DNA of 64,000 nt from a bacterium (lineage in GTDB: Bacteria; J088; JAWLBW01). Positions 3,046 to 50,894 of the stretch are shown here, one piece after another (position 1 is the first letter of the stretch; each line of letters starts with the position of its first letter). The notes below the pieces were generated by a model. The model saw only the letters and a list, made by a program, of their open reading frames with translations, was not told the origin of the DNA and searched no databases. Location: contig JAWLBW010000001.1 of NCBI GenBank assembly GCA_041687475.1, positions 4,703 through 68,702 on the forward strand, in the 5' to 3' direction. The position numbers and the translations under genes are program-made.

Positions 3046-4197
3046 ATGTTTTTCGTCTCGGCTTTTCTCTTCTTCGCCTCGTCCTACCTGCTGCTTCCGA
3101 CGCTGCCGGTCATTCTTCAGCAACGGGGCGCGACCCCCTCTGAAGTCGGCCTGGTCATGGGAGCCTTTACGGCAGCGGCCGTGCTTCTTCGCGGCCCGGT
3201 CGGCAGCCTCGTCGACGCGGTTACCCCCCGTCGCATGCTGCGCGTCGGCCTTGCGCTCACGGCCCTGGGGTTCCTGCCGTACTTTCTTCCCGGCGTGTTC
3301 GCCATGGTGCCGGGGCGAATTCTGCAGGGCCTGGGTCTCGCCGCGTTCAGCACCGCCTCGTACCTTTATCTCGACAGCCTGGGGGGCCCCGCCCGCCGGG
3401 CCGAACTCATCAGCCTGTACGGCCTCAGCGCGAACGTAGCCATGTCGATTGCGCCGGCGTTCGGCTCGTTGCTCGTCGAGCATGGAAACGAGGCGGCGCT
3501 GTACGTCACGGGCGTCGTACTGGCCCTGGGCAGCCTGTCGGTCGTACCGGTACTGCGCAAGCACGCGTCCGTCGAGCCGGTGAGCCGCGAAAGTGTCAGT
3601 GCGTCTGAAGCCGGACGCCGCGACTGGCGCGTCTGGCGCCCCGCGCTGGCCATGCTGGGGCTTGCCGTTGCCTACGGCAGCATCATGGTTTTCGTGCCCA
3701 TTGCCATCGAGCGGCAAGGCGCCGAAGATGGATGGGTTTTCTTTTCGACCTACGGCGCCGCCATCATGACAACCCGCATCTCGCTTCGCCGGCGCATCAA
3801 CGCCGGCAGCCGGTATCCGTGGATCTGGGGCGGCTGCGCAGCCATTGTATTGGCGCTGGTGTGGCTCATCTTCGCCCGGTCGCTCTTCATGTTCGCCGTC
3901 GCCGCAGTGTTCTTCGGTGCGGGGGTGGGCCTTGCCCACCCCACGCTCATGGCCCTGTGCATGGAATGGGTATCGCAGCGGGCCCGCGCACATGCCACCG
4001 CCATCGCGACCGCCGCCTTCGACGGAGGCATTGCCGGCGGCGCCGCGTTCAGCGGCTGGATAGCCGGTCTTGGCGGCGTGCGCGCGGCTTTCGTCGCCGT
4101 GGCGATACTCTTCGTTCTCGGCCTTCTGCCGCTGTTGCAGCGCGCGAAAAGACTTTACGAAGGCTCGCCCTTGCCCGGCGATGCGCCGCCGAAATAG
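3046..4197 (+). CDS. MFS transporter
   Basis: Twelve hydrophobic segments, with an MFS loop 2-3 motif region VGSLVDAVTPRRML. The ORF opens at 2938, but the first TM helix begins at MFFVSAFLFF, so 3046 is preferred. Stop codon is TAG at 4195-4197. Confidence 0.65.
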   Translation: MFFVSAFLFFASSYLLLPTLPVILQQRGATPSEVGLVMGAFTAAAVLLRGPVGSLVDAVTPRRMLRVGLALTALGFLPYFLPGVFAMVPGRILQGLGLAAFSTASYLYLDSLGGPARRAELISLYGLSANVAMSIAPAFGSLLVEHGNEAALYVTGVVLALGSLSVVPVLRKHASVEPVSRESVSASEAGRRDWRVWRPALAMLGLAVAYGSIMVFVPIAIERQGAEDGWVFFSTYGAAIMTTRISLRRRINAGSRYPWIWGGCAAIVLALVWLIFARSLFMFAVAAVFFGAGVGLAHPTLMALCMEWVSQRARAHATAIATAAFDGGIAGGAAFSGWIAGLGGVRAAFVAVAILFVLGLLPLLQRAKRLYEGSPLPGDAPPK

Positions 4198-16563: not shown

Positions 16564-17223
16564 TCAGAGCGACAGATTCTGTTTCGCCGGCATGCCGAGG
16601 GCGCGGGCAATGTCGGTGAACACCTGGTCGTAGGCCAGCTCGGGTTCGCTGAACATTTCGCGCAGATCGTCGAATACGATCAGCGAACGGTGAGCGTGCG
16701 CGCGTTCTCCCAGCAATGTCAGGTCGGGAATGAAGGGAATGTCGTTTTCGCGCAGGATGTCTTTGATCTCGGCCGGGTCTTCGGTAATGACGCGCAGGGT
16801 CTTGTGCTCGTCAATGAAGACTTCGCGAAAGAAGCCGGTGTCGTCGTTACGGCCGGCCAGCCCGGCCCCCAGCATGCCGTCGTTCTGAATCTGGAAGGCA
16901 TGTTTCTGGAAAAGGGCCATGATGTCGTGGCGTTTCATGTAACGCCCGAGCGAGGCGTAACGCCCCTGCGGCCATGCCGGCAGATCCTCGCCTTCTTCGG
17001 GCGGTCGTTCCATAACCGGATAGACCATGTCCGACAGGTGCTCGGTCAGGCTGCGAAAGACGTTAAACAGCTCGGGAACCGGCAGCGAGAGTTCGAAGAA
17101 GTAAGGCGAACGGCTGTGACGGTAAATCGTGAGTCGAAAACCACGCTCGGGCTGAAACGGTGGTTCGTCGTCGCCGGCGATGGGAATGACACCGAGAGGG
17201 GTACGGAAGCTTTGCATACCCAC
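16564..17223 (-). CDS. Hypothetical cytoplasmic protein
   Basis: 219 aa ORF downstream of the large lipoprotein gene. No recognisable motif. Confidence 0.4.
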   Translation of the reverse strand: MGMQSFRTPLGVIPIAGDDEPPFQPERGFRLTIYRHSRSPYFFELSLPVPELFNVFRSLTEHLSDMVYPVMERPPEEGEDLPAWPQGRYASLGRYMKRHDIMALFQKHAFQIQNDGMLGAGLAGRNDDTGFFREVFIDEHKTLRVITEDPAEIKDILRENDIPFIPDLTLLGERAHAHRSLIVFDDLREMFSEPELAYDQVFTDIARALGMPAKQNLSL

Positions 17224-17334: not shown

Positions 17335-19626
17335 CTACCAGGTCGAAAGCGGGCGGAATGAACCGCGACCGTCGTATTCGAAGAGCATGTCGTCACGATG
17401 GTCGAACGAGAGAATGGCGTCGTAATTTCCGTCGAGCGTGTTCTGGTCGCCGGTGGGGTGGCGCAGACGATGCGAAATGAGCAGCCGGTCGCCGGCTTCC
17501 CACTCGCGATAGGCCTGCGCGCGAAGATCGTCGCTCGTGCCGCAGATACCGTCGGCGCCCGGTTTCACGGCCGTACGGTCGGTCGAGGGCGGCGAGACGA
17601 GCACGAGGGTCGTGGGCTGACGATCGTAGTGCGCGCCGTTGCGGAAGAGGTCAAGTTGTATCGTCACACCGGTAACCGCTGCGGCGAGGGCATGCGGCTC
17701 GCCGTTTTCCAGGCGAACGATAGAAAGATTCGAATCGTTCACCGACGCGGCGTCGAGCAACTCGTCGCGACCGATGGCGCCGGTGGTGCCGTCGGGTGTC
17801 GCGAACACCAGGCCCAGTTCCTCGTATCGGCTGACCGGCTTACCGGCTTCGCAGCGGGTGACGGAGCGGGCGTATATGCCGTGCGAGAGATGGGTGAAGG
17901 TGCCGTACGGCATGAAGGAAACCGTCTGCCCCGGCGTCGGCGGCTCGGGCGTGAGCTGGTACCACCGGCCGTCGTTCAGCTGCAGCGTGGGCGGAATGGG
18001 CATGGTCGAAATATCGCCGCCGGGCACGAGCCCGCTCCAGCGATCGTCGGCCTCACCGGTCTGCTCGTTTCCGTCTTCACGACCGTCGACTAGGGGAAAG
18101 CCGTGCTCGTCTACGATCAGCTCTTCGCCGATGTTGAGGCGCACGGAATACACCTGCCCGTCGGGACGCCGATCGGTCGTGATGTAGACATGTTCGGGTA
18201 CGATCTCGAAGGGCGCGTTTTCAAGGCCCATCTTCACGAGATCGACGTGAACGGAATAGTCGCAGGTCTTCGCTTTCCAGTAAGCGGCACAGTTGATGAC
18301 GCCTGTTTCGATGTTGACCTGCTGGCCGCGGTTGCTGCCGACGGTAAGCACTTCATCCCAGACGCCGCTTGTGGTTATCTTGAGCCCCACGAGTTCATTC
18401 GGGCGGAAAGCGCCGTTGTGAAAAACGAGAGCCTTGAATTTGTCAGGCTGCGCATCTTCGGCGCCGCCCGCGGCCGGATCGGTGAAGTAGATTTCGGAAA
18501 CCGTTACCGTGCCCGCCGTTCCGTTGTTGTCGACGATGGGCAGGCTGTAGCGATAGCCGTTCGAAGACAGGGCCACCAGCCAGGCCCCGGTAAGGCTGCC
18601 GTCGGGAATGCCCTTGAGAGCGTCGGCCGTAAGTATCGTTGCCGTGGCCGAGCCGGCCGTACCCACCAGGGGGGCGGGAATGCGCAGTCGATTGTCGAGA
18701 AACAACCGGCCGTTGAAGCTGCGTTCGTTTTCGTCGAACACGTCGAAAGCATTGACCAGCCTCGAGGGGGCAACCGGAATGGAACCCCAGCGTTGACCGA
18801 AGCCATGGGTGGGTGCGGTGTTGGGGGCCGCCACGCGCATACGCAGAACGCCCTTGGCCGGAAGCGGCAACGTTACCCGATAATCGCCGTCGGTAACAGC
18901 ATAGCTGTAGACGTCGCTGCCGGTACCGGGCAGGTATCGGGGCGGGTTTTCGTTATTCGGCATGACGCCGATGAGTTCGAGCACCCGCGGACGTGCGTTG
19001 TTGAGGGGCGTGCGCCAGATAGCCGGCGAGAAACGGTCGTCGCAGGCGAAAACGGGCAAGGACAGAAAGGGCACGGGCTTGGCTATGAAGTCGTTGTCGA
19101 CGCGCGCGTACTGATGCTCGTCCCGGGAAATATCGACGATGCCGTCGCCGTCGATGTCGGCCCCCACCAGGCCGTCGAGACCGCGCCCAAGTTCATCCGT
19201 TACCGTTTCAGGAAGTTGCAGTACGTACTGGGTATGATCGGGCAGGGCAACGCTGAAACTCACGAGGCGGTTACCGTCTTCCCAGCGAAAAGAGCCGGGT
19301 TGCGGTTCGACCGGGCTTTCGCGATTCAGGGGAACGTCATAGCCGACCGCGTCGCCCATGACTTCGTAGAAGGCGAGTCCGGCTTCGACATTGCCGCGGT
19401 TCATCGGGCGCGTGAAGCGCAGCGTAAAGCTCAAATCCGTATTCCTGTCGCACGACGAGCGGCGAAGATCGGACACGGCAGGAAGCAGACCCTCGCCCCC
19501 GGTCGTGATGGAAACCGGTTGCGGCTCGTACGACTGAGCCGAGGGTAATTCGCACGCAGCCAGCCCCAGTGCCGCCGAAAACGCGATGTGCGCTCTACGT
19601 TGCAGCCCCTTGCGTGTCATGCGCAT
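17335..19626 (-). CDS. Large lipoprotein (763 aa) with an Ig-like (Big_5/SbsA-type) N-terminal domain
   Basis: Lipobox AALGLAAC. Ig-like pattern LSFTLRFTRPM...FRWEDGNRLVSFSV...YVLQLPETVTDELGRGLDG and a Ca-binding-like DIDGDGIVD. There is a 9 nt gap from the upstream outer-membrane gene, and an AGGAGA RBS. Confidence 0.6.
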   Translation of the reverse strand: MRMTRKGLQRRAHIAFSAALGLAACELPSAQSYEPQPVSITTGGEGLLPAVSDLRRSSCDRNTDLSFTLRFTRPMNRGNVEAGLAFYEVMGDAVGYDVPLNRESPVEPQPGSFRWEDGNRLVSFSVALPDHTQYVLQLPETVTDELGRGLDGLVGADIDGDGIVDISRDEHQYARVDNDFIAKPVPFLSLPVFACDDRFSPAIWRTPLNNARPRVLELIGVMPNNENPPRYLPGTGSDVYSYAVTDGDYRVTLPLPAKGVLRMRVAAPNTAPTHGFGQRWGSIPVAPSRLVNAFDVFDENERSFNGRLFLDNRLRIPAPLVGTAGSATATILTADALKGIPDGSLTGAWLVALSSNGYRYSLPIVDNNGTAGTVTVSEIYFTDPAAGGAEDAQPDKFKALVFHNGAFRPNELVGLKITTSGVWDEVLTVGSNRGQQVNIETGVINCAAYWKAKTCDYSVHVDLVKMGLENAPFEIVPEHVYITTDRRPDGQVYSVRLNIGEELIVDEHGFPLVDGREDGNEQTGEADDRWSGLVPGGDISTMPIPPTLQLNDGRWYQLTPEPPTPGQTVSFMPYGTFTHLSHGIYARSVTRCEAGKPVSRYEELGLVFATPDGTTGAIGRDELLDAASVNDSNLSIVRLENGEPHALAAAVTGVTIQLDLFRNGAHYDRQPTTLVLVSPPSTDRTAVKPGADGICGTSDDLRAQAYREWEAGDRLLISHRLRHPTGDQNTLDGNYDAILSFDHRDDMLFEYDGRGSFRPLSTW

Positions 19627-19635
19627 TCTTTTCTC

Positions 19636-21318
19636 CTAGAATACAAGAAGCGCCGAAACCCCGAAGGCCGGGTCGGAAAGGTCTATGAACCCTTCGCCGG
19701 CAGGTTCGGCCGAGAGTATGAAGTCGATTTTTGCGCTGCGGGTAAACCAGTAGCCCGCGCCGGCCCGAAGCGTGGCGGTAACGCCGATTTCACGGACCTC
19801 GTCGACTCCGCCCGCCGGCAGAAGCGCGTTGCCGTAGCGCGTGGGCGACGATTCGCCGCTACCGGAGAAGGAGCGTCCCGAGGGCACCACCACACCCGAT
19901 AGCTCTTCGGTCTGCCGATACCAGAGGTTGCGGTAACGCAGTTCGCTGCCGAGCCGCCATTCGAGACCGGCGTTACCTTCGCTCAGCATCGTGAATGCAA
20001 GCGGAAGCCTGATGTCGAGGTCGCGCATGGCGGTTTCACGCAGGAATCGGGTCTGACCCCGGGCCTGCGAACGAACGTCGCCGTCGCTGAAGGTACCGTC
20101 GCCGTCGGCGTCGAAAAATTCGGTCACTTCATAACTCGAGGCCAGCGTTCGGGTGTCGGTGGCCTGGCGCCAGGTTACGTTGAGGCCCCATCCGAGTTGC
20201 AGCAGCGTATCGATCTGCGAGATGTGACGAAAGCCGGCCGTCGCTCGCAGCCGCTCGCCTACCGTGCCTGTCTGTACGTCGACACGCCTTTCTTCACGCT
20301 GGTAGGAGCGGTCGATACCGCCGGTGGTAACGGTTACATTGCGTGTGCCCGTGGTATCGCCGCCGAGCTCCGACAACCCGATGCCCGGCGAATACTCGCC
20401 GCCCAGGTCGAAGTAGGTGAGGCCGCTGCCCAATCGCATGAGCGTCAGGGCGATGCCGCCGAAAGGACTGGTACCCGACCATTCGCTGCGTCCCTGGAAC
20501 GTGGTCTCGGCGGTGCCGCCGGCCACGCTGGTCGACTCGACGGTTGAGACCTTGCTCAGTTTCTAGAGACGCTCGACGCCGCCGAGAACGTCGACCCCCC
20601 AACCCCACCCCGGCTCGCGGGGTGCCTTGAGGTAGCCGGTAACAAGGCCGGCCCGCAGCGATTCGCTGTCGGTACGTGGGTCGCTTGTCAGGCTGACGGT
20701 CTGGCTGCCGCCGTCACGCTCGATGAGGCTCGATAATTCTGTGCTTTCGGCCGCGCCGCCCGCCGGCGACGTAAAGGTGAACAGCCCCGGACCCACCGAA
20801 GCATCGCCCACTGAAACATCGGACCAGAGCGCCTGCAGACCGATGCCGAACTGCCCCCCGCCAAGCTCGGAACCCAGTCCGACGGCAAGCCGGGCTTCAC
20901 CTTCGCTGCGGGGGGTCGCGCCGGGTAGCCGTGTGCTCTGCTGGGTCTGAAGCAGTCCGTTGTCGGTTTCGAGAAGGCGCAGGCTGTCGACCCGCTCGCC
21001 GGAGTTCTCATATCGGTAGCCGCCCGAGCCCAGCACGGTCAACGACCAGGCGTCCGTCGAAGCATTGCCGTAGCCCAGTGCGGCGTTTCCTTCCGGCGCC
21101 AGGTTGGCCAGTTGGGTGATCATGCGGTCGGCATCCCACCGTGTGCTCCTGCGCGGTTGAATGAAACCTTCATAATCGTCGGCGAACAGACCGAAGCTGG
21201 TCTGGTAGCGCAGGCTTCGTTCGGGCAGCAGCACGGCTTCGTACTGTGCGGCCGAGGCAGGTGCGGCCAGAGGCAACAGGCCCGCCAACAGAATAGGTAT
21301 GGCTGTCAAACGTCTCAT
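19636..21318 (-). pseudogene. Outer-membrane beta-barrel protein interrupted by one in-frame TAG at 20563-20565
   Basis: ORFs 20563-21378 and 19636-20526 are in the same frame and 12 sense codons apart. The N-terminal half has a signal peptide MRRLTAIPILLAGLLPLAAPASA. The C-terminal half has none and ends in the beta-barrel signature LLVF. Confidence 0.5.
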
Positions 21319-21412
21319 AACGGCCCGAACATTGTTGCAAGTACCCTGCGACCTGTCAACGATGGACCGCCAACCCACCGAAGCACTCGTTGCAGAGAAA
21401 ACCTATCGCAGA

Positions 21413-24328: not shown

Positions 24329-26812
24329 TCAGTGCGCCGCTGTCGGCGCCCGGTGCCCGAAGATGTTGATGTCGAGGTAGTTTTCACGGGGTCGGGTTTT
24401 ACCGCCACCCGAGGTTTTGGCTACCTTGGTCGACTTCGGCGCCGCCTTCTTGTCGAGGGCGATGTTGAGCACCTCGTCCATGCGGTTGACGAAGTGGAAG
24501 GTCACACCCTTGATGACTTCCTTGGGAATTTCGTCGACGTGCGCCTTGTTTCGCTCGGGCAGGATGATGGTCTTCACTCCGGCCCGCTTGGCCGCAATGA
24601 CTTTCTCCTTGATGCCGCCGACGGGCAGAACCGCGCCACGCAGGGTAATTTCACCCGTCATGGCCAGTTTCTCGCGCACCGGAATACCCGACAGCAGGCT
24701 CGTCAGGGCCGTGAGCAGGGTCACGCCGGCACTCGGGCCGTCCTTGGGAATGGCGCCGGCAGGCACGTGAATGTGCAGGTCGATGTCGTCGAAAATGTCT
24801 TCGTTGACATGAAACTCACGTGCCTTGCTCTTGATGTAGCTCATGGCGGCCTGGGCGCTTTCCTTCATGACGTCGCCGAGCTGGCCCGTGAGCTGCAGGT
24901 TGCCCTTGCCCTTCATCTTGGTGGCCTCGATGAAGAGAATGTCGCCGCCCACCGGTGTCCACGCAAGGCCCACGGCCACGCCGGGCACCTGCACCCGGTC
25001 GACAATGTCGGGGTGATACTTGCGGGGGCCCAGGTAATTCGGCACGTCATCGGCCGATACCTTGGTGCGGCCACGCTTGCCTTCGGCCACCCGCTTGGCG
25101 ACGCCGCGGCAAATGGCGGCGATTTCGCGCTTCAGCCCGCGTACGCCGCTTTCCTTGCTGTAGCCGTCGATGATGGCGGCAAGCGCGTCGTCGGTGAGGT
25201 CGAGGTTCTTGGGCACCAGACCATGCTCGTCGAGCTGTTCGGGCAGCAGGAATTCGCGTGCGATACGCATCTTCTCTTCCTGCGTGTAGCCGGGCACTTC
25301 GATGATTTCCATACGGTCGCGCAGGGGCGACGGAATGGTGTCGAGCTGGTTGGCCGTGGCGATGAAGAGAACCTTGGAAAGGTCGTACGGCACCTCGAGG
25401 TAATGGTCCTGGAAGGTGTTGTTCTGTTCCGGATCGAGCACTTCGAGCATGGCCGAGCTGGGGTCGCCGCGGAAGTCGCTGCCCAGCTTGTCGATTTCGT
25501 CGAGCATGAACACGGGGTTGCCGCTGCCGGCGCGCTTCATGCCCTGCACGATGCGACCGGGCAAGGCGCCTACGTATGTGCGGCGATGTCCGCGCACTTC
25601 GGCTTCGTCACGTACGCCGCCGAGACTCATGCGAACAAACTTGCGCCCCAGGGCGCGGGCCACGCTTTTTCCAAGCGAGGTCTTGCCCACTCCGGGTGGA
25701 CCCACCAGACACAGAATCGGACCCTTGAGGTCGTTCTTGAGTTTGAGTACGGCAAGGTACTCGAGAATGCGTTTCTTGACTTTTTCCAGACCGTAGTGGT
25801 CTTCATTGAGAATCGCCTCGGCGGCCGCAATGTCGAGCTGATCCTCGGTATACGATTCCCAGGGAAGCTCGACAATCCAATCGAGGTACGTGCGGGTGAT
25901 CGCATGTTCCGGCGAGTGAGGCGAGATGCGTTCGAGGCGGTTGAGCTCCTTGAAGGCGACCTTCTTTGCCGTTTCCGGCATCGGTTTGTCGTCAATGGCC
26001 CGCCGCAGCTCTTCCATCTCATCGGCTTCGTCTTCGCTGTCGCCGAGTTCCTTTTTGATGACCTTCAGCTGTTCGCGCAGGTAATACTCACGGTGGCTCT
26101 TGTCGATTTCGCCCTTGACCTGACTCTGAATCTTGTTCGAGAGTTCGAGAACGTGAATTTCCTTGAGCAGGTGATCGGTGACCCGCTTCAGCCGTTCATT
26201 GGTCGACAGAGTTTCGAGAATATCCTGCTTTTCGGCGACCCCCAGCTTCAGATTACTGGCGATGAGATCGGCCAGAATGCTGGGGTTGTCGAGATTCTGC
26301 ACGACGAAGGCGGCCTCTTCGGGCACGGCCGGCGACAGGTCTATGGCCCGCTTCGCCATGTTTTTCAGATTGACCATCAGGGCTTCGGCCTCGATGGTGT
26401 TCTCCGTCGTTTCGTCGAGAGGGTCGACAGCGACCTTGACGTACGGCTCCTTGTGCAGGAGCTCGCGAATGCGGAAGCGGGTGAAACCCTGCACCACGAT
26501 ATTCTGCGAGCCGTCGGGCAGCTTGATGAGCTTCAGAATCTTGGCAATGACACCGATATCATATAAATCTTCGTGATCGGGGTCTTCGGTTTCCGGATCC
26601 CGCTGGGTCACAATGCCGACGACCTTGTTGTTGAGCAGGGCCTCTTCCAGGGCGGCCAGGCTCTTCTCGCGGCCAACGGTGAGCGGAATCGTCAGAACCG
26701 GGAAGACGACCGTGTTGCGCAGCGGTATGATCGGAATCTCACGGGGGAAATCGCCCGCGAATTCGCCGCGCAGGTCACGTTCAATCATTTCCTTGTTGAC
26801 TTTCTCATCCAT
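24329..26812 (-). CDS. lon: ATP-dependent Lon protease
   Basis: LON N-terminal domain, Walker A GPPGVGKTS, and Ser-Lys protease dyad region DGPSAGVTLLTAL...K. Confidence 0.95.
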   Translation of the reverse strand: MDEKVNKEMIERDLRGEFAGDFPREIPIIPLRNTVVFPVLTIPLTVGREKSLAALEEALLNNKVVGIVTQRDPETEDPDHEDLYDIGVIAKILKLIKLPDGSQNIVVQGFTRFRIRELLHKEPYVKVAVDPLDETTENTIEAEALMVNLKNMAKRAIDLSPAVPEEAAFVVQNLDNPSILADLIASNLKLGVAEKQDILETLSTNERLKRVTDHLLKEIHVLELSNKIQSQVKGEIDKSHREYYLREQLKVIKKELGDSEDEADEMEELRRAIDDKPMPETAKKVAFKELNRLERISPHSPEHAITRTYLDWIVELPWESYTEDQLDIAAAEAILNEDHYGLEKVKKRILEYLAVLKLKNDLKGPILCLVGPPGVGKTSLGKSVARALGRKFVRMSLGGVRDEAEVRGHRRTYVGALPGRIVQGMKRAGSGNPVFMLDEIDKLGSDFRGDPSSAMLEVLDPEQNNTFQDHYLEVPYDLSKVLFIATANQLDTIPSPLRDRMEIIEVPGYTQEEKMRIAREFLLPEQLDEHGLVPKNLDLTDDALAAIIDGYSKESGVRGLKREIAAICRGVAKRVAEGKRGRTKVSADDVPNYLGPRKYHPDIVDRVQVPGVAVGLAWTPVGGDILFIEATKMKGKGNLQLTGQLGDVMKESAQAAMSYIKSKAREFHVNEDIFDDIDLHIHVPAGAIPKDGPSAGVTLLTALTSLLSGIPVREKLAMTGEITLRGAVLPVGGIKEKVIAAKRAGVKTIILPERNKAHVDEIPKEVIKGVTFHFVNRMDEVLNIALDKKAAPKSTKVAKTSGGGKTRPRENYLDINIFGHRAPTAAH

Positions 26813-27956: not shown

Positions 27957-30047
27957 TCACGCCGCAGGCTCCTCGTCGTCGGAACCATAATAGTACTGGT
28001 ACTGGTAGGCATATGCCCCGTCGGTGACGTCGAGGCCGTTCAGAACGACGCCCAGCACATTGGTGTCGACCTCGACCAGACGCCGCCGGGCTTCGGCCAC
28101 CAGGTCGCGGCTGACCTTGCCGGACTTGACCACGTATAGTACGCCGTCTACCTTTCGGCCGAGTACGATGGCATCGGTCACCGGAATCACCGGGGGACTG
28201 TCGAAGACCACCCGATCGAATTCCTGTTCGAGCATCTTGAGCACTTCGTCCATGCGGGCGCTCGTCAACAGTTCGCTGGGATTCGGCGGCAATGGACCGC
28301 TGGGAATGACCCACAGATTGGGTATGTCGGTGGGCAGCATGACCGATGCGACGTCGTTCGAACCCAGAAGAAGCGTCGAGAAGCCTGCGTCGTTACGAAG
28401 GCCGAAGGTCTTGTGCAGCCTGCTTCGGCGCAGATCGGCGTCGACCAGGACCACGCGCTGTCCGGCCTGGGCCAGGGTGATACCCAGGTTGCAGGTGGTC
28501 GTCGATTTGCCCTCGAGCGGGGTCGCACTCGTGACGATGAAGGAGTGCAGCGGTTTTTCAGCCCCCAGGAACATGAGGTTCGTACGGATCGAACGGCAGC
28601 TTTCGGCGATCGTGCTCTTTGGGTGAGTGTGCACGAACAGGTCACGGTCGGTCGATTCTTCGTTAGCGTCGGCCATGTCCGGAATGACGCCGAGTAGCGG
28701 CAGCTGAACGTGACGTTCGATATCTTCGGTAGTCTTGATCGTGTTGTCGACGTACTCGAAGAAGAAGGCAAGGCCGATACCTCCGACGAGTCCCACGAGA
28801 ACGGCCAGGGCCATGTTGACCTGCACCCGCGGCTTCACGGGCCGGCTGGGTTCGAGCGCGCTGTCGATGATGCGCAGGTTGTTGGCGCGCAGCGAGCTTG
28901 TGAGATCGGCCTCCTTCAGCCGACCGAGCAGAATGTCGTACAGCTGCTGGTTTTTTTCGGCATCTTGTTGAATGGCCATGTGGCTGATGAATTTCTTGTG
29001 CAACTCGAGGGCTTCCTGTTTGGCGGTTTCGAGCTCGGCGCCCAGCGAGTTTTCTTCGGCACGCTTGAGCACGTACTCGGTACGGGCCGCTTCCAGAATC
29101 TTGGTTATCTCGCCCTCGATGCGCTGATTCACGAAGGAAATCTGGTCGTGCAGTCGGCGCATTTTCGGATGCTCGGGCAGGTAACGGGCCGAAAGCTGGC
29201 TGTGTTCGCGTTGCATGTCGATGAGTTGCTGCTTGAGATTCTGCACGAGCTGGCTCGAAAGAACCTCGACCAGTGCCTCTCGGTCGGTACCCGCCCGCAC
29301 GAGGCGGTCAAGGCGCTTCCAGCGTGCTTCTACCTCGATGCGTTCGGCCCGGGCGCGTGAATAGGCGGTGTTCAGATCGACCAGCTTCTGCAGCATCAGG
29401 TTCTGCTTGTCGTCGAGCCCCACAAGCCTGTTCTTGTTCTTGAACTCGAACATCTTCTGCTCGCTTTCGACGACCTGGTTTTTCAATTCGGCCAATCGCT
29501 CGCTCAGCCAGTCAACCGCCTGCTTGGTAAGACTCAGGCGCTGTTCGAGGTTATCTTCGATATATACTTCGGCAATTGCGTTGGCCACCCGGGTGGCTTC
29601 GGCAGGATCCGGATGATTGTAGGAAATCTTGACCAGCTGGCTTTCCTTGATTGGTGTGACCTCCAGGTGCGCAAGGAAGTAGCCCGGAGTCATGGTGACC
29701 TCCTTACCCTCCTTGCCTTCCTGCTTGAGCCCGAGCCGATCGATAACCCGGCGTGCGATGTGGTTGCTCTGGATAATGCGGTTCTGGGTGTTGTAGTAGT
29801 CCTGGTACATGTAGTAGTTGCCCGAACCGAAATCGTCGATGGACTGAAAGTTCAGTACCTTCGGCGTATCGGGCAGAATGGCGATGGTCGTCGTCGCACG
29901 ATAGATCGGCGTCTGGCTCAGGGTACCGATGAGTACGACCGTAACCAGAACGACGAAGAAGGTGGCAACGACCCAGCGTCGCTTGCGAATGACCTCCCAG
30001 AGGTCCTTGAGATGAAATGCGTTCTGCTGTGTTCCTTCCTGGCCCAC
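27957..30047 (-). CDS. wzc: Polysaccharide co-polymerase/bacterial tyrosine autokinase (Wzc/BY-kinase family)
   Basis: Two TM segments flanking a long coiled-coil periplasmic domain. Walker A GKSTTT, A' VVLVDADLRR, B VVFDSPPV. Tyr-rich tail YAYQYQYYYG. Confidence 0.85.
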   Translation of the reverse strand: MGQEGTQQNAFHLKDLWEVIRKRRWVVATFFVVLVTVVLIGTLSQTPIYRATTTIAILPDTPKVLNFQSIDDFGSGNYYMYQDYYNTQNRIIQSNHIARRVIDRLGLKQEGKEGKEVTMTPGYFLAHLEVTPIKESQLVKISYNHPDPAEATRVANAIAEVYIEDNLEQRLSLTKQAVDWLSERLAELKNQVVESEQKMFEFKNKNRLVGLDDKQNLMLQKLVDLNTAYSRARAERIEVEARWKRLDRLVRAGTDREALVEVLSSQLVQNLKQQLIDMQREHSQLSARYLPEHPKMRRLHDQISFVNQRIEGEITKILEAARTEYVLKRAEENSLGAELETAKQEALELHKKFISHMAIQQDAEKNQQLYDILLGRLKEADLTSSLRANNLRIIDSALEPSRPVKPRVQVNMALAVLVGLVGGIGLAFFFEYVDNTIKTTEDIERHVQLPLLGVIPDMADANEESTDRDLFVHTHPKSTIAESCRSIRTNLMFLGAEKPLHSFIVTSATPLEGKSTTTCNLGITLAQAGQRVVLVDADLRRSRLHKTFGLRNDAGFSTLLLGSNDVASVMLPTDIPNLWVIPSGPLPPNPSELLTSARMDEVLKMLEQEFDRVVFDSPPVIPVTDAIVLGRKVDGVLYVVKSGKVSRDLVAEARRRLVEVDTNVLGVVLNGLDVTDGAYAYQYQYYYGSDDEEPAA

Positions 30048-30059
30048 CGTTACCCCCTG

Positions 30060-30899
30060 TCAGAAGAAGCTTTGCGGAACTACGACGATATCTTCGGGCT
30101 GCAGGCGCAGGTCGCTTTCCTTGTTGTCGACGACCTTGCCCAGATTGATACGCATCTTGCGCTCTTTGCCGTTCTGCGAGCGTATTACCTGAACCTTGCC
30201 GTCGTTGGCCTTGTTGGTGAGACCTTCTGCCAGACTGACCGCCTGAAGAACGGTCAGGCCCTCGCGGTAGGGAACGACCCCCGGTTTTTTCACCTCGCCG
30301 TACACGTAGACGCCGTCGGAGCGCGGAACGAACAGAATGTCGCCGTCGCCCACGACGAGATTCAGGGTCGCTTCTCCGAAGCGCAGAAGTCGGTGGGCGT
30401 CAATGAGCACAGGTTCGGTTTCACTGGTGATGGCCGGGGGACCCGAGGTGCGATTTCCGCCCCGCACGAGAACAAGGCTCCGGGCCGCGTTCTCGAGAAC
30501 GCCACCGGCCTGCGAAACCAGATCGAGCACCGTGGTTCTACCGCTTAGCGAGTAGGGCCCGGGTTCCTTCACCATGCCGAGTACCACGGCCTTCCGGCTG
30601 CGGTATTCCTTGACCTGAACGAACACCTGCGGGTCGACGAGATAGCGCTCGGCCAACCGCGTGCGAATCAACTGCTCGATTTCGGCCGACGTATGTCCCG
30701 TGACCGCTACGGCCCCGATTAGAGGAAACCCGATGGTGCCGTTTTCGTGAACGACCGCTTCCTTGCTCAGGTCTTCTTCATCGAATACGCGAATTTCGAG
30801 CACGTCTCGTGCTCCGACCCGGTATTCGTCTGCCGCCTCGGAAATCGACGGCAACAGCATCAAGGCAATCAGGCTGCAGGTAAGCGCTATCAGTCGCAT
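30060..30899 (-). CDS. wza: Short outer-membrane polysaccharide export (OPX/Wza-family) protein lacking the C-terminal OM-spanning helix
   Basis: Signal peptide. Poly_export motif YRVGARDVLEIRVF...NGTIGFPLIG plus SLBB-like repeats. Only 279 aa, ending right after the last SLBB repeat. Confidence 0.8.
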   Translation of the reverse strand: MRLIALTCSLIALMLLPSISEAADEYRVGARDVLEIRVFDEEDLSKEAVVHENGTIGFPLIGAVAVTGHTSAEIEQLIRTRLAERYLVDPQVFVQVKEYRSRKAVVLGMVKEPGPYSLSGRTTVLDLVSQAGGVLENAARSLVLVRGGNRTSGPPAITSETEPVLIDAHRLLRFGEATLNLVVGDGDILFVPRSDGVYVYGEVKKPGVVPYREGLTVLQAVSLAEGLTNKANDGKVQVIRSQNGKERKMRINLGKVVDNKESDLRLQPEDIVVVPQSFF

Positions 30900-32161
30900 C
30901 AGAGCATTGCCTCCACTTCAAGAAAGACCTGATTGGTTTCGTAGCTGAACCAGTCGAAATCACTCTCGCGCTGCTCGCGGTTGTACCCGAGGTTTACCTT
31001 GAGCCAGTCTTCGCTTAGGGGCCGGAACTCTCCCTTTACCGAAGCGAGAAACCCCCAGTCGGTACGCGCATACGGCTCGGAATAGCGGTTGCTGAAGACA
31101 TTGCCGCCTACCGCCGCAGCCACGATGGGGGTGAAGGCGTGCCAGAATTCGGCGTAGCCCCGGTTGGAAACATAGTAGCTTGTGCTGTATGAATCGTAGA
31201 GTTCACGGGCGCCGCCGACGGTGAGGCGCGTGCGTTCACTGAATTTTTCGTTGAACTCCAGCTTGCCCAGCCAGGTGCTGGCGCGGGCGGCTGAGTTCTC
31301 GTAATCGAGGCGGCCCCACCCCAGGGCGAGAATGGCCGTCATGCGGCTCGTTACCGCACCCTGAGCGCCCAGCCAGGCTTTCCACCCGTCGGCGTCATTC
31401 TTCTGAATGGTCGAGGCGGCTTCCGAATCGAGATAACGAACGAAGTAGCCTTCACCCTCGACAAAAGCAGCCGTTTTGGGAAAGAAGCGATACGAAATGC
31501 GCCCGCGAGGGGCATGAATGTTCTTGTCGAGATACGTATAGGTCTGGGCCGAAAAACGCTCGCTGCTGAGTATGTAGCCGGCGTCGAACTGCAGGTTGCT
31601 GTCTTCCAGGTTATAGACGAGGGTCGGTTTGAATTCGTTGTGAACCAACCCGATGGGTCGGAGGTCGGCCTGCTCGTCGAAGGTGAGCTCGGTGGCCGTT
31701 ACGAAGAGGTTTTTTCGCACCAGATCGTCGCGCAGGCCAATACCGAAACCGTTGTTGAGCCGGAGGCTGAACTCGCCGAATACTTCGTGGTTGTTGAAGG
31801 TATCCCAGATGGTGGTATCGATGTTGCCATCGAAACCACCGGTGTATTTGACGCCCTGCCATGCATAGCCGGCTGACGCATGACTGTTCGTACCGAAAGG
31901 CAGGCGCAGGTTGAGCTGTGGGTTCAGCGTGAAGTAGATGTCTTCTACGGGGTCGACGCTGAAGCTGCCCGAGTCGTTTACCTTGAATACGTTGTCGTCG
32001 TAGATGGCCGAAAACGTGACCGATGGCCTTACCTCGACAGGTCCGGCCTGAAGCCGTGCCGGGCCGTCGGCCGCCTGGCTCGCGCCCGGAATAAGCGCTG
32101 CTAACAGCGCGCCTGCCGCGGCTGCAGTGATGATCCTGCTCACGATGTTCCCCCCAAACAA
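30899..32161 (-). CDS. Outer-membrane beta-barrel protein, candidate translocon partner of the short OPX
   Basis: Signal peptide IITAAAAGALLAALIPGASQA and alternating amphipathic beta-strand pattern rich in aromatic residues. It overlaps the wza start by 1 nt. Confidence 0.6.
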   Translation of the reverse strand: MFGGNIVSRIITAAAAGALLAALIPGASQAADGPARLQAGPVEVRPSVTFSAIYDDNVFKVNDSGSFSVDPVEDIYFTLNPQLNLRLPFGTNSHASAGYAWQGVKYTGGFDGNIDTTIWDTFNNHEVFGEFSLRLNNGFGIGLRDDLVRKNLFVTATELTFDEQADLRPIGLVHNEFKPTLVYNLEDSNLQFDAGYILSSERFSAQTYTYLDKNIHAPRGRISYRFFPKTAAFVEGEGYFVRYLDSEAASTIQKNDADGWKAWLGAQGAVTSRMTAILALGWGRLDYENSAARASTWLGKLEFNEKFSERTRLTVGGARELYDSYSTSYYVSNRGYAEFWHAFTPIVAAAVGGNVFSNRYSEPYARTDWGFLASVKGEFRPLSEDWLKVNLGYNREQRESDFDWFSYETNQVFLEVEAML

Positions 32162-32192
32162 GTAAGTGACCCGCCGAAGCGAGCCGGTGCGC

Positions 32193-32762
32193 TTAGCGCA
32201 CCGGCGTCGCCGGCTTTTTCGGCACGATATGATCGGCCGGTTTGTCCTTCGGCTCTACCGTTTCACCCGGTTCGATGTCGCCGTCGAGATTCTTTTCCGA
32301 GACCAGTTGTCCCGAATTGATGCGCACACAGGCGCGGGCCTGGGTAGCGAGATCGCGTACGCGTTCGGTCGCCGCCGACAGGGTTTTGGCCTCGATGTTC
32401 AGCGACTCGATATCGCCCGTGGGAATCGAAGACAGCCGCTTGGCGGCCTGACTGGCCGCATTGCGAAGATTCTGCGCCGGAACGAGCTTCTGCTCGACGC
32501 ACGAAGCGGCAAGGGAATCATTGCGTCGGCGGGCGTCGGTACGCAGCCGCGTCATGGACTCGATATGGCCGGCGATATTGTCGAGGTACTGTGTTTCTAC
32601 CTCCTGGATCCGACCCGCCAGGATCTGGCTCATCAGGGTTTCGACCCCACCAATGGCCGCCTGGGCCTGGTTCGGGTGCGCGTGCGTGAACCCGAGTTCG
32701 TGCGCGTGCGCGACACCGGGCGCAAGGCTTGCGGCCAGTATAAACATAAGCATCCGTGTCAT
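32193..32762 (-). CDS. Hypothetical secreted protein
   Basis: Signal peptide MTRMLMFILAASLAPGVAHA. His-rich HELGFTHAHPN, then a helical region. Confidence 0.45.
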   Translation of the reverse strand: MTRMLMFILAASLAPGVAHAHELGFTHAHPNQAQAAIGGVETLMSQILAGRIQEVETQYLDNIAGHIESMTRLRTDARRRNDSLAASCVEQKLVPAQNLRNAASQAAKRLSSIPTGDIESLNIEAKTLSAATERVRDLATQARACVRINSGQLVSEKNLDGDIEPGETVEPKDKPADHIVPKKPATPVR

Positions 32763-32874
32763 AAGTCACCCCAAAGACAAAAGCGTCTATCTCCAGCCTA
32801 GGAACCCGGAAGCAAACGGTCAACGGCCCGTCTCTGCAGACCTGGAACCCTCTTGCACAACCACCGCGCCTGTG

Positions 32875-33135
32875 TCACTGCGCCGTCGACCGGGTGTCGC
32901 GTTCTGCCAGCTTTACGGCGTCTTTCACAATCTCGTCGAGCAGGGGCGAGCGCAGGCGTTCTACGCCGGGTGTCGGTGGCCCTTTCTGACTTCGCTCCAG
33001 GATGAACATGACCTCGGGCTTGTGAATCTCACCCTCGACGGCCAACTGATCCATACGTATGGTCTCTGCGGCCGCCGTAATGCCGAGGAGCGACAAAAAT
33101 GCCACTGCCAGTCCCAGGAAAATGGATAGACGCAT
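32875..33135 (-). CDS. Small hypothetical secreted protein (86 aa)
   Basis: Signal peptide MRLSIFLGLAVAFLSLLGITAAA. Sits within the operon. Confidence 0.4.
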   Translation of the reverse strand: MRLSIFLGLAVAFLSLLGITAAAETIRMDQLAVEGEIHKPEVMFILERSQKGPPTPGVERLRSPLLDEIVKDAVKLAERDTRSTAQ

Positions 33136-33137
33136 GA

Positions 33138-34511
33138 TTACTTCACCGATGGTAGATAACGTTCGAGTTCACTGGGTTGTTCCCGTCGAGAAGAGCCGTT
33201 GCGCTCGTCGTCTGCAGGCGCGGAAGCCGGAGGTGATTCGGGCGCGGGTCGAATATGGTCGGAGTCTGCCTGTTCGCCGGCTCCGTCGTTGTTGCCAGCA
33301 GCCGAGTCGCCACTTTCCGTTTCAACGTCGGTCACGGGAATCGAGCCGCCTGTCTCGATGGGTGCCGGCAGTGATTTCAGCTTTTCGATGGCCCGTTGCA
33401 CCTCACCGCGTTTTCCATGCGTCAATAAATCGAGCGCTTTCTCGAGATAGGCCAATGCTCTGGCCCTTCCCGTAGAGGTCGAGGCATCCAGGGCGTAGTA
33501 CCTTCCGGCTGCGAGGGCATACGCGGGCTCCTCGACGCCGGAAGCGGCTGCCTCCTTGAGTGACGGCAATGCCTGCGACGCGAGATCGCGGTCAATGAGT
33601 AAGTTCGCCAGGTTGAGATGGGCTTCGCCGAGGCGAGGGGCGCTGGCAGCGGCCGAACGGAAATCTGTTTCGGCTTCGTCCCAGCGTTGCAGCACGGCAA
33701 ATACGTAACCTCTATCGTTGAGGGCAGGTGCGAACGTCGAACGCATTTCGAGCGATTCATTCAGGTGTTCAAGGGCAAGCGCCCATTCCTCTTTCTCCAA
33801 AGCCAGTCGAGCCAGTTGCCAGAAGACAACCCCCTTATCTACGGTGGGCGAATCGGTAAGGGTGGTCAGCAACTCTTCGGCGAGGGTGGTGTTGCCCTGT
33901 TGTGCGTGCACGCGGGCAACGACCAGGCGGGCCTCATCCTGGCGTTGATCGAGCAGCAGCGCGCGGCTCGCCGACTCGAGCGCCTTGTCGAAGTCGTCGG
34001 CGCGACGGGATACCTCGGCGAGAAACACCCACCGGCTGGCGTCGGATGGTCGGTCGTCGACGAGTTGGACGGCGAGTTTAGCCGCTTCGTCTGCACGACC
34101 CGACCGAATCAGGGCATCGGCCAGGACGGCCACGGCCGCAGGGTGGCCCGGTCGTAGAAACAGGGCATCGCGCACGGGGGCGATGGCAAGCGCCGGGTAG
34201 CCGTGATTCAGCAGCAGGCGCCCCAACTCGACCCGCAGTTCGACATCATCGGGCACCCGGCCCAGGCGTTCGATCAGGTGCCTTGCCTTCTCGTGCACGT
34301 CGGTATCGTCGAGGCCGCGTAGGGCTTCGGCGTAAAGGTTTGTCCTCTCGCTTTCAGGACCGGTCGCCCGCGTCACCGCGTCGGCATGGTTCTCCATGGC
34401 AACGGGTGCTTCCGGCGCCGGCTTTGTGACTTCGGCAACATCGAGCTTTCGCGAGGGCGATGAGGTGGCGCAGCCGGCTGCCGCCAGACAGAGGACTATG
34501 AGTTTTTTCAC
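33138..34511 (-). CDS. TPR-repeat lipoprotein (457 aa) with an acidic, Pro-rich C-terminal tail
   Basis: GTG start overlapping the upstream stop (GTGA). Lipobox LCLAAAGC. At least 8 TPR-like 34-residue units. Confidence 0.65.
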   Translation of the reverse strand: MKKLIVLCLAAAGCATSSPSRKLDVAEVTKPAPEAPVAMENHADAVTRATGPESERTNLYAEALRGLDDTDVHEKARHLIERLGRVPDDVELRVELGRLLLNHGYPALAIAPVRDALFLRPGHPAAVAVLADALIRSGRADEAAKLAVQLVDDRPSDASRWVFLAEVSRRADDFDKALESASRALLLDQRQDEARLVVARVHAQQGNTTLAEELLTTLTDSPTVDKGVVFWQLARLALEKEEWALALEHLNESLEMRSTFAPALNDRGYVFAVLQRWDEAETDFRSAAASAPRLGEAHLNLANLLIDRDLASQALPSLKEAAASGVEEPAYALAAGRYYALDASTSTGRARALAYLEKALDLLTHGKRGEVQRAIEKLKSLPAPIETGGSIPVTDVETESGDSAAGNNDGAGEQADSDHIRPAPESPPASAPADDERNGSSRREQPSELERYLPSVK

Positions 34512-37500
34512 TGGAGCGCCTCCCTGCCTTCTGCCGTGCGAAATACCAGATCGTCGTCATGAAAGAAGGTATGCTGCTCGCGAAGGACCTTTCCGAGAAG
34601 GCCGCGCAGGCGTTTGGTGCCGACCATGTTTCCGTCGAGGCCGTCGGCGGCAACCTCTTCCGAGCTTGTGCGTACTGCCGCAATCATGGGCACCGGCTCG
34701 TGACCCTTGTCTTTTGCAGCCAACAGATGTGGCGACAGTCCGTCGGTAAGCAGGCGTACGCGGCTGGGTTGGGTACTGAGGGCCGCTCTGATGCGGCCTG
34801 TCCACTCGTTTTCCATCTTGAGGTCGCCGGCCCGTTCAAGGGCGAGGTTCCAGGCTTCGAAAGCTTTGTCCTCGACGGGCAGCGCCTTTTCTTCAAGTTC
34901 GAATTTGTAGATTTCGGCTTCCTCGGAACTCAGGCCGTCTGGCGTGGGGGCCGAAAAGAGCGACTCGGCAAAGTGGGCGTACGCCTCGCCTATACGGAAA
35001 AGCGCCGCGACGGCCCAGTGTGGGTGACCGGCCTCTACGACACGCGTATACGACGCCTGTAGATTCTTGAGACGTGTGGCCTTGTTCTCGAGAATGCTCG
35101 CCAGACGGTCCATATTGCGTGGGAGCACGATGGCGCGGTATCGCTCACGCTCGAGTTCGGCAAGAGCGAAGCGGGCAGCCCCCGCCGTCCAGAGGTCGGG
35201 TTCGCCCTGATCACGCAGCCGGTTTTCAAGAGCGACCGCCTGCTGTAGAAGCCGCTTTTGTTCGCCCCCCTTTACCAGCATGGCCGCGCTGTAGGCTGCA
35301 AAGGGGGCCTTTTTGTCGTCTGAGCGACTGGCAGCGAACGATTTATAGCGCTCGACCGCCTGAGCGGTTTCTCCGGCCGCTTCCCACTGCACGGCGGCAC
35401 GAAGCAGGGTGTCGCTGGCCTCGGTCGCCGACCTTCCGTAGTTGTTCCAATGCTGTTCGAAAAACCTGGCCGCTTGCCTGTGTTCTCCGATCAGACCGCT
35501 CAGCGAGGCCACGTTGAAGAGGGCGTCTGCCGCCTCTTCGGAACGCGGATACTTTTCTACGACGAGAGCGTAGGCCGCGATGGCGCGCCGGTGATCGAGT
35601 GCGTTCTGCAGAATATGCCCGCGGCGAAAGGCGGCGCGGGAAGCGAATTTTTCCTTGCCGTGTCGTTCCAGTATTGACGCGTACAAATCGAGTGCCTTGA
35701 TCGTGTGACCGGCCTTTTCGTAGTTATAGGCTGCGTTGAACAGAGCCGCCACGCCGGCGGGTGTCGCAGGATACCGTCGGTAAACGGCAAGGTACCTGGT
35801 TGCTGCTTCCTCGGCGTCGCCCAGTCTGTCCTTGGCATGCGCTTCCCTGAACATGGCGCCACCCACCATGTCAAGCACGTATCGCCGGGCGACCTTGTCG
35901 GCGGGTAGACCCCTTTCGAGAAGCCGGTCGGCCCAATCGGCGAGATCTCCGTAGCGTTCTTCCTTCGCATAAGAGTCAATGACCGTTCGGATGGCATCGA
36001 GCACGAGGGGCGAATAAGGGTACGATTCGATCATGGCCGACAGGCTGCCGCGACAGGCGTCCTCCAGACCTTGCCTGCAAAGCTCGTGCCCTGCGTGATA
36101 GAGCACCCGTGGCGTATTCTCATCCGTCGGCAGCAAGTCGGCATACTGTCGACTGACTTCGACCAGTCGGTCGATGTTGGTCGGGTTCTGCTCGTAGAGC
36201 CGCCGGGCTGCAAGGACCGAGTTGTAGGCGGCGGTGTGCGCGATACCGGTCGTCGGGTCGGGGGCCGTTCGTGCGACCAGTGTATAGTGGCTCAGGGCAT
36301 CGGCGTAGGCTTTGCGATCATACAGAAGTTCGGCCAGATAGAAATTGATCTGACCTGCCCGGGCGTGCTCGGGAAAGTGTGCCAGATACAGCCGGTAACC
36401 CTCTTCGGCGGGCTTGCGGCTGGCATCGTTTCCATCACCCCATTGCTCGTGATGAAAGGTCGAGTACTCGAACAGATAGCGCTCGACCAGTGCATCGGCT
36501 TTTTCACGCAGGGTCGCCCGGGTGGCATTGGCAGCGTACCAGGCCGAGCCCGGAAGGAACTGCGTGGCAAGCCGTCGGCGTTCATTGACGGCCGTTACCT
36601 TTTCCCGCATCTGATGAAGCGATTGAACCTTGCGGCCTGCAGCACGTAGGTTTTCGGGGGCTTCGGGCCACCGTGCTTGTGCAACGGTGTAGGCGCTTAC
36701 CGCCGACATGAAGTCGGTGCTCTCGTAGAAAATGTCGGCTATGCGTCGCAGCAGCCTGTCGTCGTAGGACCGCTGCCCCCGATTTTCCATATCTTCAAGA
36801 GCCTGGGATAACCCCATGCCTTCAACGTAGCTGATGGCAAGGTACTGCATGGCCTCGTTCAACAGATCGGGGCGTTCACGGCCCATGTCGGCCAGCCGGG
36901 TAAAGGTCGAAATTGCCTCTGCATAAGCGTTCTGGCGATAGAGAGACCAGGCCAGCTTGTAGATGGCGCGATCCATCCAGGGGCCCTCTTCGGCAAGGGC
37001 GGCTTCATAGAAACGCGCGGCAGAGGCAATCCGGTGTCGGTCGAAGTGATAGTCGCCGATTCGAACGAGAATTTCTGCTCGCAGCCTGCTTTCTGCCGAC
37101 TCGGCCAGGAGCTCTTCGAAAGCGAGTACGGCTCTTCGTTCCTCGCCCATTTCCTGTAGTGCGTAGCCCTTCAGGTACCATGCAATCGCGCGGTTGTCTG
37201 CACCGCCCTTTCCGGCTAGCAAGCGCTCAAGGGTGGCGAGGGCAGTGCCGTAGTTCTTGCGGGGCTGCCTCTTCTCCGTTTCATCGGGAAGGGCCAGGTA
37301 ACGATTCATCTGCTCGGCGTAATGTTGATCGGCAGACTCCATTTGAAGCACCGCGAGGCGCAACAAGGCTTCAGAAACCTGGGGTGAGTCTGCGTGATTG
37401 GAGACGAAGCTTTCGAGGCGTGCCTCGGCCACCCGGCGCTGCTTCGCGGTTTCCGTTTCCAGCGGTACCCTTAGTGCCTCATAGCGCTTTTCTATCGCGT

Positions 37501-37696
37501 TGCGGCTTTGCGTGTGTTGCTTCGTCAGAACTGCGCCAATCTGCTTCTCGGCCGCATCAAGGTTACGCTCGGTAAGCAGCAATCTGAGCTCGGTTTCATC
37601 GTACGAAATCCGTGCCGAAGGTTCGTAGGCGGCGAGCCGTAGTGGCGGAGATGCCAGGAAAATCGCTACGCTCAAGAAGACACGGCGCACGATCAT
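34508..37696 (-). CDS. Large TPR-repeat protein (1062 aa), exported
   Basis: N-terminal signal/anchor MIVRRVFLSVAIFLASPPLRLAA. TPR-like repeats throughout (W/Y-L-G-A-Y-A spacing). ATGA overlap with the upstream gene. Confidence 0.65.
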   Translation of the reverse strand: MIVRRVFLSVAIFLASPPLRLAAYEPSARISYDETELRLLLTERNLDAAEKQIGAVLTKQHTQSRNAIEKRYEALRVPLETETAKQRRVAEARLESFVSNHADSPQVSEALLRLAVLQMESADQHYAEQMNRYLALPDETEKRQPRKNYGTALATLERLLAGKGGADNRAIAWYLKGYALQEMGEERRAVLAFEELLAESAESRLRAEILVRIGDYHFDRHRIASAARFYEAALAEEGPWMDRAIYKLAWSLYRQNAYAEAISTFTRLADMGRERPDLLNEAMQYLAISYVEGMGLSQALEDMENRGQRSYDDRLLRRIADIFYESTDFMSAVSAYTVAQARWPEAPENLRAAGRKVQSLHQMREKVTAVNERRRLATQFLPGSAWYAANATRATLREKADALVERYLFEYSTFHHEQWGDGNDASRKPAEEGYRLYLAHFPEHARAGQINFYLAELLYDRKAYADALSHYTLVARTAPDPTTGIAHTAAYNSVLAARRLYEQNPTNIDRLVEVSRQYADLLPTDENTPRVLYHAGHELCRQGLEDACRGSLSAMIESYPYSPLVLDAIRTVIDSYAKEERYGDLADWADRLLERGLPADKVARRYVLDMVGGAMFREAHAKDRLGDAEEAATRYLAVYRRYPATPAGVAALFNAAYNYEKAGHTIKALDLYASILERHGKEKFASRAAFRRGHILQNALDHRRAIAAYALVVEKYPRSEEAADALFNVASLSGLIGEHRQAARFFEQHWNNYGRSATEASDTLLRAAVQWEAAGETAQAVERYKSFAASRSDDKKAPFAAYSAAMLVKGGEQKRLLQQAVALENRLRDQGEPDLWTAGAARFALAELERERYRAIVLPRNMDRLASILENKATRLKNLQASYTRVVEAGHPHWAVAALFRIGEAYAHFAESLFSAPTPDGLSSEEAEIYKFELEEKALPVEDKAFEAWNLALERAGDLKMENEWTGRIRAALSTQPSRVRLLTDGLSPHLLAAKDKGHEPVPMIAAVRTSSEEVAADGLDGNMVGTKRLRGLLGKVLREQHTFFHDDDLVFRTAEGREALQ

Positions 37697-50247: not shown

Positions 50248-50267
50248 AGTCTCGGGAGATTCATCGC

Positions 50268-50894
50268 ATGCTGCTGCTTGATCTCGACGGAACGCTTGTC
50301 GACTCGTTGCACGACCTTGCCGTCTCGCTGAACCATACCCTGCACACCTTCGGCCTGCCCGAACGCAGCCTGGCCGAGGTGCGTGCCTTCATCGGCGAAG
50401 GCGTAACCGTTCTTCTCGGGCGCGCGTTGGCAACCGAAGATGCCGCCACGCTGGAAGAGGGTCGAAGGCGGTTTTTCGAACACTACCGTGAACATTGCCT
50501 CGACGACACACGTGTCTTTGCCGGTTGGGAGCCGGTTCTCGAAAGCGATCTGCCCCTGGCGGTGCTGACGAATAAACCCGAAAGGTTCGCCCGGCGAATT
50601 CTCGAAGGGCTTGGGCTGCACAAGCGGCTGGCCATGATCGTCGGCGGCGACACGCTTCCGGTACGCAAGCCCGACCTGGGGGTGCTCGACCACATGACCG
50701 AGGCCCTGGGTGTGGCGCGTGAGCGCTGCATCATGGTAGGCGACGGTCTACCCGATGGACGCATCGCGCAGGCTGCAGGCATTCCGTTCTGGGCCGTTCG
50801 CTGGGGTTACGGAAGTGAAGAGAGCCTCGCTCCGTATGCCACGCGATGGCTCGCTGATCCGCGGGAGATCATCGAACTCACGGAAACCCGCTGA
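50268..50894 (+). CDS. HAD-superfamily hydrolase (phosphoglycolate phosphatase-like)
   Basis: Motif I LLLDLDGTLVDS, motif II LTNK, motif IV GDGLPD. Confidence 0.7.
   Translation: MLLLDLDGTLVDSLHDLAVSLNHTLHTFGLPERSLAEVRAFIGEGVTVLLGRALATEDAATLEEGRRRFFEHYREHCLDDTRVFAGWEPVLESDLPLAVLTNKPERFARRILEGLGLHKRLAMIVGGDTLPVRKPDLGVLDHMTEALGVARERCIMVGDGLPDGRIAQAAGIPFWAVRWGYGSEESLAPYATRWLADPREIIELTETR

Follow-up and report, generated by a model that had tools for sequence, protein, structure and literature searches.

On the minus strand of the 64,000-nt stretch of bacterial DNA analysed here (the window), two adjacent open reading frames (ORFs) at 20563–21378 and 19636–20526 raise the question whether an outer-membrane β-barrel is encoded there as two genes, as one gene whose internal TAG is read as sense, or as one gene broken by a single base. 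Translation of the window shows that the minus strand from 21318 down to 19636 forms one frame of 561 codons with a single internal TAG, and no frameshift is present in the barrel gene. Exactly 12 sense codons (20527–20562) lie between the TAG at 20563–20565 and the GTG at 20526 that opens the second ORF. An initial interpretation made from the letters of the window (the sequence-only reading) had placed both ORFs in the same frame, separated by a TAG plus 12 sense codons, and this arrangement holds base for base. It had further put the joined protein at about 580 residues; counted from the ATG at 21318, the intact product has 560, matching orthologues of 557–561 aa.

The complete frame of the barrel gene (19636–21318, minus strand; 561 codons including the internal TAG) is composed of four elements, all in the same orientation: (i) an N-terminal part at 20566–21318, whose product as translated has 251 aa and includes a signal peptide (residues 1–23), a candidate plug and approximately the first nine strands of the wall; (ii) the premature TAG at codon 252 (20563–20565), which together with its flanks reads TCTAGA at 20562–20567; (iii) a C-terminal part 3′ of the stop at 19639–20562, consisting of the 12 sense codons and the 296-codon ORF from GTG 20526, with the remaining wall strands and a terminal SALLVF motif; and (iv) the normal TAG terminator at 19636–19638, directly after the C-terminal Phe. 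Judged by eye, the N-terminus, MRRLTAIPILLAGLLPLAAPASA followed by AQYEA, is a typical Sec signal peptide with an AxA cleavage site for signal peptidase I between the two segments, and equivalent signal peptides are found in all orthologues. At the other end the protein closes with FGVSALLVF before the TAG, a β-signal that ends in Phe; this Phe is invariant in 18/18 family members, and in two of them a single additional residue follows it. The second ORF has no signal peptide of its own, and no Shine–Dalgarno-like sequence precedes its GTG.

Two start codons can be considered for the barrel gene. Initiation at GTG 21378 would add 20 residues that are present in no orthologue, and this extension overlaps a promoter-like site, TTGACA-17-AACAAT, on the minus strand at 21331–21359 (10/12 match plus a TG extension; a consensus match only), located ~12 nt upstream of ATG 21318. 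Orthologue lengths and the promoter-like site favour ATG 21318 as the start, before which no Shine–Dalgarno sequence is evident. Given the short gap of ~12 nt between the near-consensus σ70-type match and the ATG, the leader of the barrel mRNA may be very short.

We searched for relatives of the joined sequence in a collection of 5.8 billion proteins and obtained four of them, with lengths of 557–560 aa, identities of 41–45% and query coverages of 97–100%. A profile search run exhaustively against 1.84 billion cluster representatives returned 18 hits, which include three further full-length orthologues (P0005–P0007, 557–561 aa), ten distant relatives (547–647 aa) and one 92-aa fragment (P0010). 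The same search recovered the N-terminal ORF (P0009, 251 aa) and the C-terminal ORF (P0008, 296 aa) of the window itself, both identical and both publicly called as separate proteins. The word-indexed search of the 5.8 billion proteins missed P0008 and P0009 even with both in its collection, so its negatives need care. Altogether, seven full-length orthologues of 557–561 aa with 35–45% identity to the window barrel are available. A scan of genome and metagenome contig collections with the family alignment yielded no related locus, and exact look-ups of the window's lipoprotein (described below) and N-terminal ORF found neither on record. The two barrel ORFs, and likewise the lipoprotein, form singleton clusters from one NCBI contig of 69,560 bp, and no independent copy was found.

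All seven orthologues and all ten distant relatives are one uninterrupted protein each across the junction. The alignment runs collinearly over the stop, which is flanked on either side by invariant residues, among them GWGW..D.LGG.E immediately before it, and for this reason the shared frame of the two halves is not a matter of chance. In the column of the stop the seven orthologues have S, S, D, R, R, S and S, that is, Ser in 4/7, and the codon of P0001 at this position is TCG. The sequence-only reading had proposed two comparisons with orthologues, and both came out in favour of a single gene: a sense codon for S, D or R occupies the stop position in every full-length orthologue, and separate proteins with their own signal peptides, which would have spoken against one gene, were looked for and not seen. 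Collinear alignment with intact full-length orthologues, together with conserved synteny, is a pattern expected of a nonsense-mutation pseudogene.

The model of the protein leads to the same picture. The AlphaFold prediction of the barrel, calculated from an 18-sequence alignment, reaches a mean pLDDT of 85.3 and a pTM of 0.80. Short helices at residues 36–60 precede more than 20 β-strands, several of great length, which form an all-β, closed antiparallel barrel with a sheet that is continuous through the junction. Codon 252 is located in a 3-residue turn between strands 237–250 and 254–265 in the middle of the modelled barrel wall. Two true genes at this locus would require each half to function as a protein of its own, as in a barrel that two polypeptides form together. 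Public gene calling does list a 251-aa and a 296-aa protein, and beyond these calls we found no other support. Against two genes, the product of the second ORF would have no route to the outer membrane, since this ORF has neither signal peptide nor ribosome-binding site; the stretch of 12 codons from TAG to GTG can still be aligned with the orthologues; no relative is split; and the modelled sheet does not break at the junction. We therefore give two genes next to no weight. The earlier expectations of one signal peptide and one C-terminal β-signal for the joined barrel, with neither half viable alone, agree with these data: the relatives are all built this way, each is a single protein of about the joined length, and the model is one barrel through the junction.

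The predicted fold supports the assignment of the protein as an outer-membrane β-barrel of the type that is a substrate of BAM. A conserved N-terminal segment, QYEAxLLxERSLRYQTSFGLF, contains short helices and is also the part common to the distant relatives; in the model it is a candidate for a plug. Profile searches gave no match of the barrel in Pfam, NCBIfam or PDB sequences, and the protein appears to belong to a rare family that no Pfam or NCBIfam model describes, with a modelled fold that appears closest to PopA and FadL-type barrels. Sequence does not place it within either group: the window protein has no Pfam hit, and only one of the 18 relatives touches Toluene_X, at an E value of 0.018 that is below threshold. 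PopA (Bd0427) of Bdellovibrio bacteriovorus (PDB 9gf0) has 16 strands in its barrel and a helical plug like that of FadL (PMC12228718). The window barrel differs from it in length (560 versus 331 aa), in its larger number of strands and in sequence (12% identity over the aligned part). Moreover, no pairing with a large lipoprotein is described for PopA, whereas the window barrel gene is so paired.

The partner gene (17335–19626, minus strand) is intact and encodes a predicted lipoprotein of 763 aa with an LAAC lipobox and Cys25. Its ATG begins 9 nt after the barrel stop, with which its AGGAG overlaps. In 4/4 orthologous loci the barrel is followed by a gene at a distance of 0–28 nt; this gene is complete (758–776 aa) in three of them, and its start is cut by the contig end in L085. 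The pair of barrel and lipoprotein thus extends over 17335–21318 on the minus strand of the window, 6001–10038 in L001, 6001–9953 in L083 and 188–4143 in L084. The three complete partners are 43–47% identical to the window lipoprotein and Cys25 is invariant. In Pfam and NCBIfam the partner has no match except for a weak Big_5 hit at an E value of 0.24, PDB sequences likewise gave none, and its structure model, with only one usable homologue sequence, has a pLDDT of 30.8 and is unusable.

Gene order around the pair is conserved as well, being shared by three of the four orthologous loci examined. In L001 and L083, genes for Lon, a SpoU-type methylase, an EndoIII-like glycosylase and RlmD precede the barrel, which is followed by the 758–776-aa gene and a gene of ~215 aa. 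From 26812 down to 16564 the window shows this order too, L002 shares it in part, and in L084 and L085 only the barrel and the next gene are visible. The last gene of this series in the window, 16564–17223 on the minus strand, encodes a protein of 219 aa that lacks a signal peptide and matches no Pfam family; its counterparts in L001 and L083, at 65% identity, directly follow the lipoprotein gene, and in the window the gap between these two genes is ~110 nt. Judged by Lon (24329–26812 in the window), the nearest genome is L003, the metagenome-assembled genome (MAG) ‘bacterium isolate 30dZY2.bin.61’, at 87% amino-acid identity, and its contig stops inside RlmD, before the barrel. The next-best Lon matches, from uncultured bacteria and a Myxococcota MAG, reach only 59%; from the Lon matches, the source organism appears to represent a deep lineage. 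Between the Lon and SpoU methylase genes, L003 has an additional ~2.2 kb that is absent from the window. Adjoining the Lon region, an intact cluster resembling those for exopolysaccharide export (27957–37696, minus strand) is syntenic with L003; on that strand it comprises a Wzz/GNVR/P-loop tyrosine-kinase-like protein (27957–30047), a Poly_export/SLBB Wza-like protein (30060–30899), a BBP2_2 β-barrel porin (30899–32161) and two TPR proteins (33138–34511 and 34508–37696).

The comparison with related loci also bears on the genetic code. If TAG were a sense codon throughout the organism, the frame would be read through as a matter of course, and nothing beyond the single in-frame TAG speaks for such a code. 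TAG closes 4/16 homology-backed genes at C-termini that match those of orthologues. Among these four are the barrel, which it terminates after the invariant Phe, and the partner lipoprotein; termination of these genes by TAG excludes a code with TAG as sense. An in-frame TAG occurs in no other gene compared, and we rate an alternative code as practically nil. The sequence-only reading had likewise considered it unlikely, and both stops that it named as examples are correct: the ORF ending at 4195–4197 ends in TAG, and 19636–19638 is the TAG terminator of the barrel gene itself.

We then considered how old the disruption may be. Identity to the orthologues is 41–45% in the N-terminal part and 43–47% in the C-terminal part, and GC3 is 0.74 and 0.75, respectively. 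In tblastn comparisons of the window with ORFs from three related loci, the barrel alone among ~17 syntenic genes had an internal stop, the 16 neighbours being intact. Equal conservation and equal GC3 of the two halves, the lack of a frameshift and the intact neighbours show that the disruption is isolated and recent. With the barrel as the sole interrupted gene, it also follows that the assembly is not generally error-ridden and that the region is not degrading.

Other apparent interruptions in the window did not hold. The tblastn alignments that contain a stop symbol at 30060–30959 and 33147–34595 place it in the 5′ leader, upstream of the start. A same-frame ORF pair at 50013–50747 and 50748–51380 (minus strand), a candidate for a second split gene, is the antisense shadow of plus-strand genes; those over 50013–51380 are RNase E/G-like, HAD-like and MgtE-like, names that we read from the translations.

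Regarding the base that changed, TCG is one transversion away from TAG, and among the Ser codons in 16 genes of the window it is used most often (155/421). The ancestral codon 252 was most plausibly Ser TCG, altered by a C-to-A transversion; this assignment is a guess, because even the nearest orthologue shares just 45% identity. With the stop, a CTAG arises, and with it the only TCTAGA of the window. CTAG is strongly avoided here, with 11 occurrences compared to 34 expected from a Markov model and 223 expected from base composition. The creation of such a site fits a young change that has not been purged, and would do so alike if the change arose in the cell or in the sequencer. TTAA is also rare in the window, with 9 occurrences.

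Programmed or tolerated read-through would offer a different account of the same features, in which a suppressor or near-cognate tRNA, or pyrrolysine insertion, decodes the TAG in part and yields a regulated, low amount of full-length barrel. Past the stop, the frame is fully intact and its conservation equals that of the first half, and the partner lipoprotein gene is intact as well; a preserved frame is, however, equally expected from a very recent mutation. The base after the stop is A, and a purine after UAG favours suppression, as known from amber-suppression studies in E. coli. Yet a stop at or near this column is present in 0/17 relatives, all of which are at most 45% identical, and the column belongs to a variable turn occupied by S, D or R. 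Within the 64-kb window we detected 0 tRNA genes and 0 Rfam hits, and the 140 nt surrounding and following the stop show no better folding than shuffled sequence (z −0.92). Furthermore, TAG truly terminates this same gene 309 codons further on, as it does the gene after it. In bacteria, UAG is usually read through at a background rate well below 1%, too low to count as a programme. The locus resembles pyrrolysine decoding and phages recoded by suppressor tRNAs in that an in-frame UAG is followed by an open, conserved frame; unlike these systems, it has no conserved stop, no nearby tRNA, no recoding element and no downstream structure, and TAG terminates the very same gene.

We thus regard read-through as very unlikely. 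Slightly less likely again is a TAG kept in the lineage as a leaky stop, with a small and perhaps condition-dependent fraction of ribosomes continuing to the full barrel. If true, the leaky TAG would throttle the barrel and, by polarity, its lipoprotein partner, and would be a natural example of amber read-through that regulates an outer-membrane protein gene on a bacterial chromosome.

Taken together, the locus very probably contains a normal barrel gene in which a single recent base substitution has produced a TAG, either as a loss-of-function allele or as a base error. Three causes had been offered before: programmed read-through, for which no support was found, and a pseudogene or a sequencing error, which sequence cannot separate. 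Because only one assembly holds the sequence, a true nonsense allele looks no different from an error of the consensus or of strain mixing.

The loss of a normal barrel gene by one substitution would have the following consequences. Conversion of the sense codon 252 of a single-copy barrel gene into TAG would end translation at residue 251, leaving a secreted product that consists of the signal peptide, the putative plug and about nine strands. A truncated protein of this kind could not close a barrel and would be devoid of the C-terminal Phe signal for insertion by BAM; from established knowledge, it would be expected to be degraded in the periplasm. The 309 codons downstream would be neither made nor exported, because they come with no signal peptide and no ribosome-binding site. 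The resulting ~930 nt of untranslated mRNA may, also from established knowledge, lower the expression of the lipoprotein partner by Rho-dependent polarity. The allele would be either fixed or a strain variant caught in the consensus; otherwise, it would be a base error in the single assembly.

Under pressure from phages, antibiotics or the immune system, nonsense substitutions often knock out porin and receptor genes, ompF, ompC and oprD among them. The window allele resembles known nonsense pseudogenes of this kind, with one premature stop in a conserved and otherwise intact outer-membrane gene, intact neighbours and a product predicted to be non-functional. It differs from the ompF, ompC and oprD cases in that it comes from an uncultured lineage, for which no selective agent can be named.

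As a genetic event, the substitution carries little weight, since single nonsense changes in genes for surface proteins are routine. For annotation, the public 251-aa and 296-aa ORF calls should be joined into a single gene that is marked as disrupted. A modestly more interesting by-product is the pairing of the barrel with a lipoprotein of ~760 aa, and it is this pair, not the stop codon, that is the thing to study.
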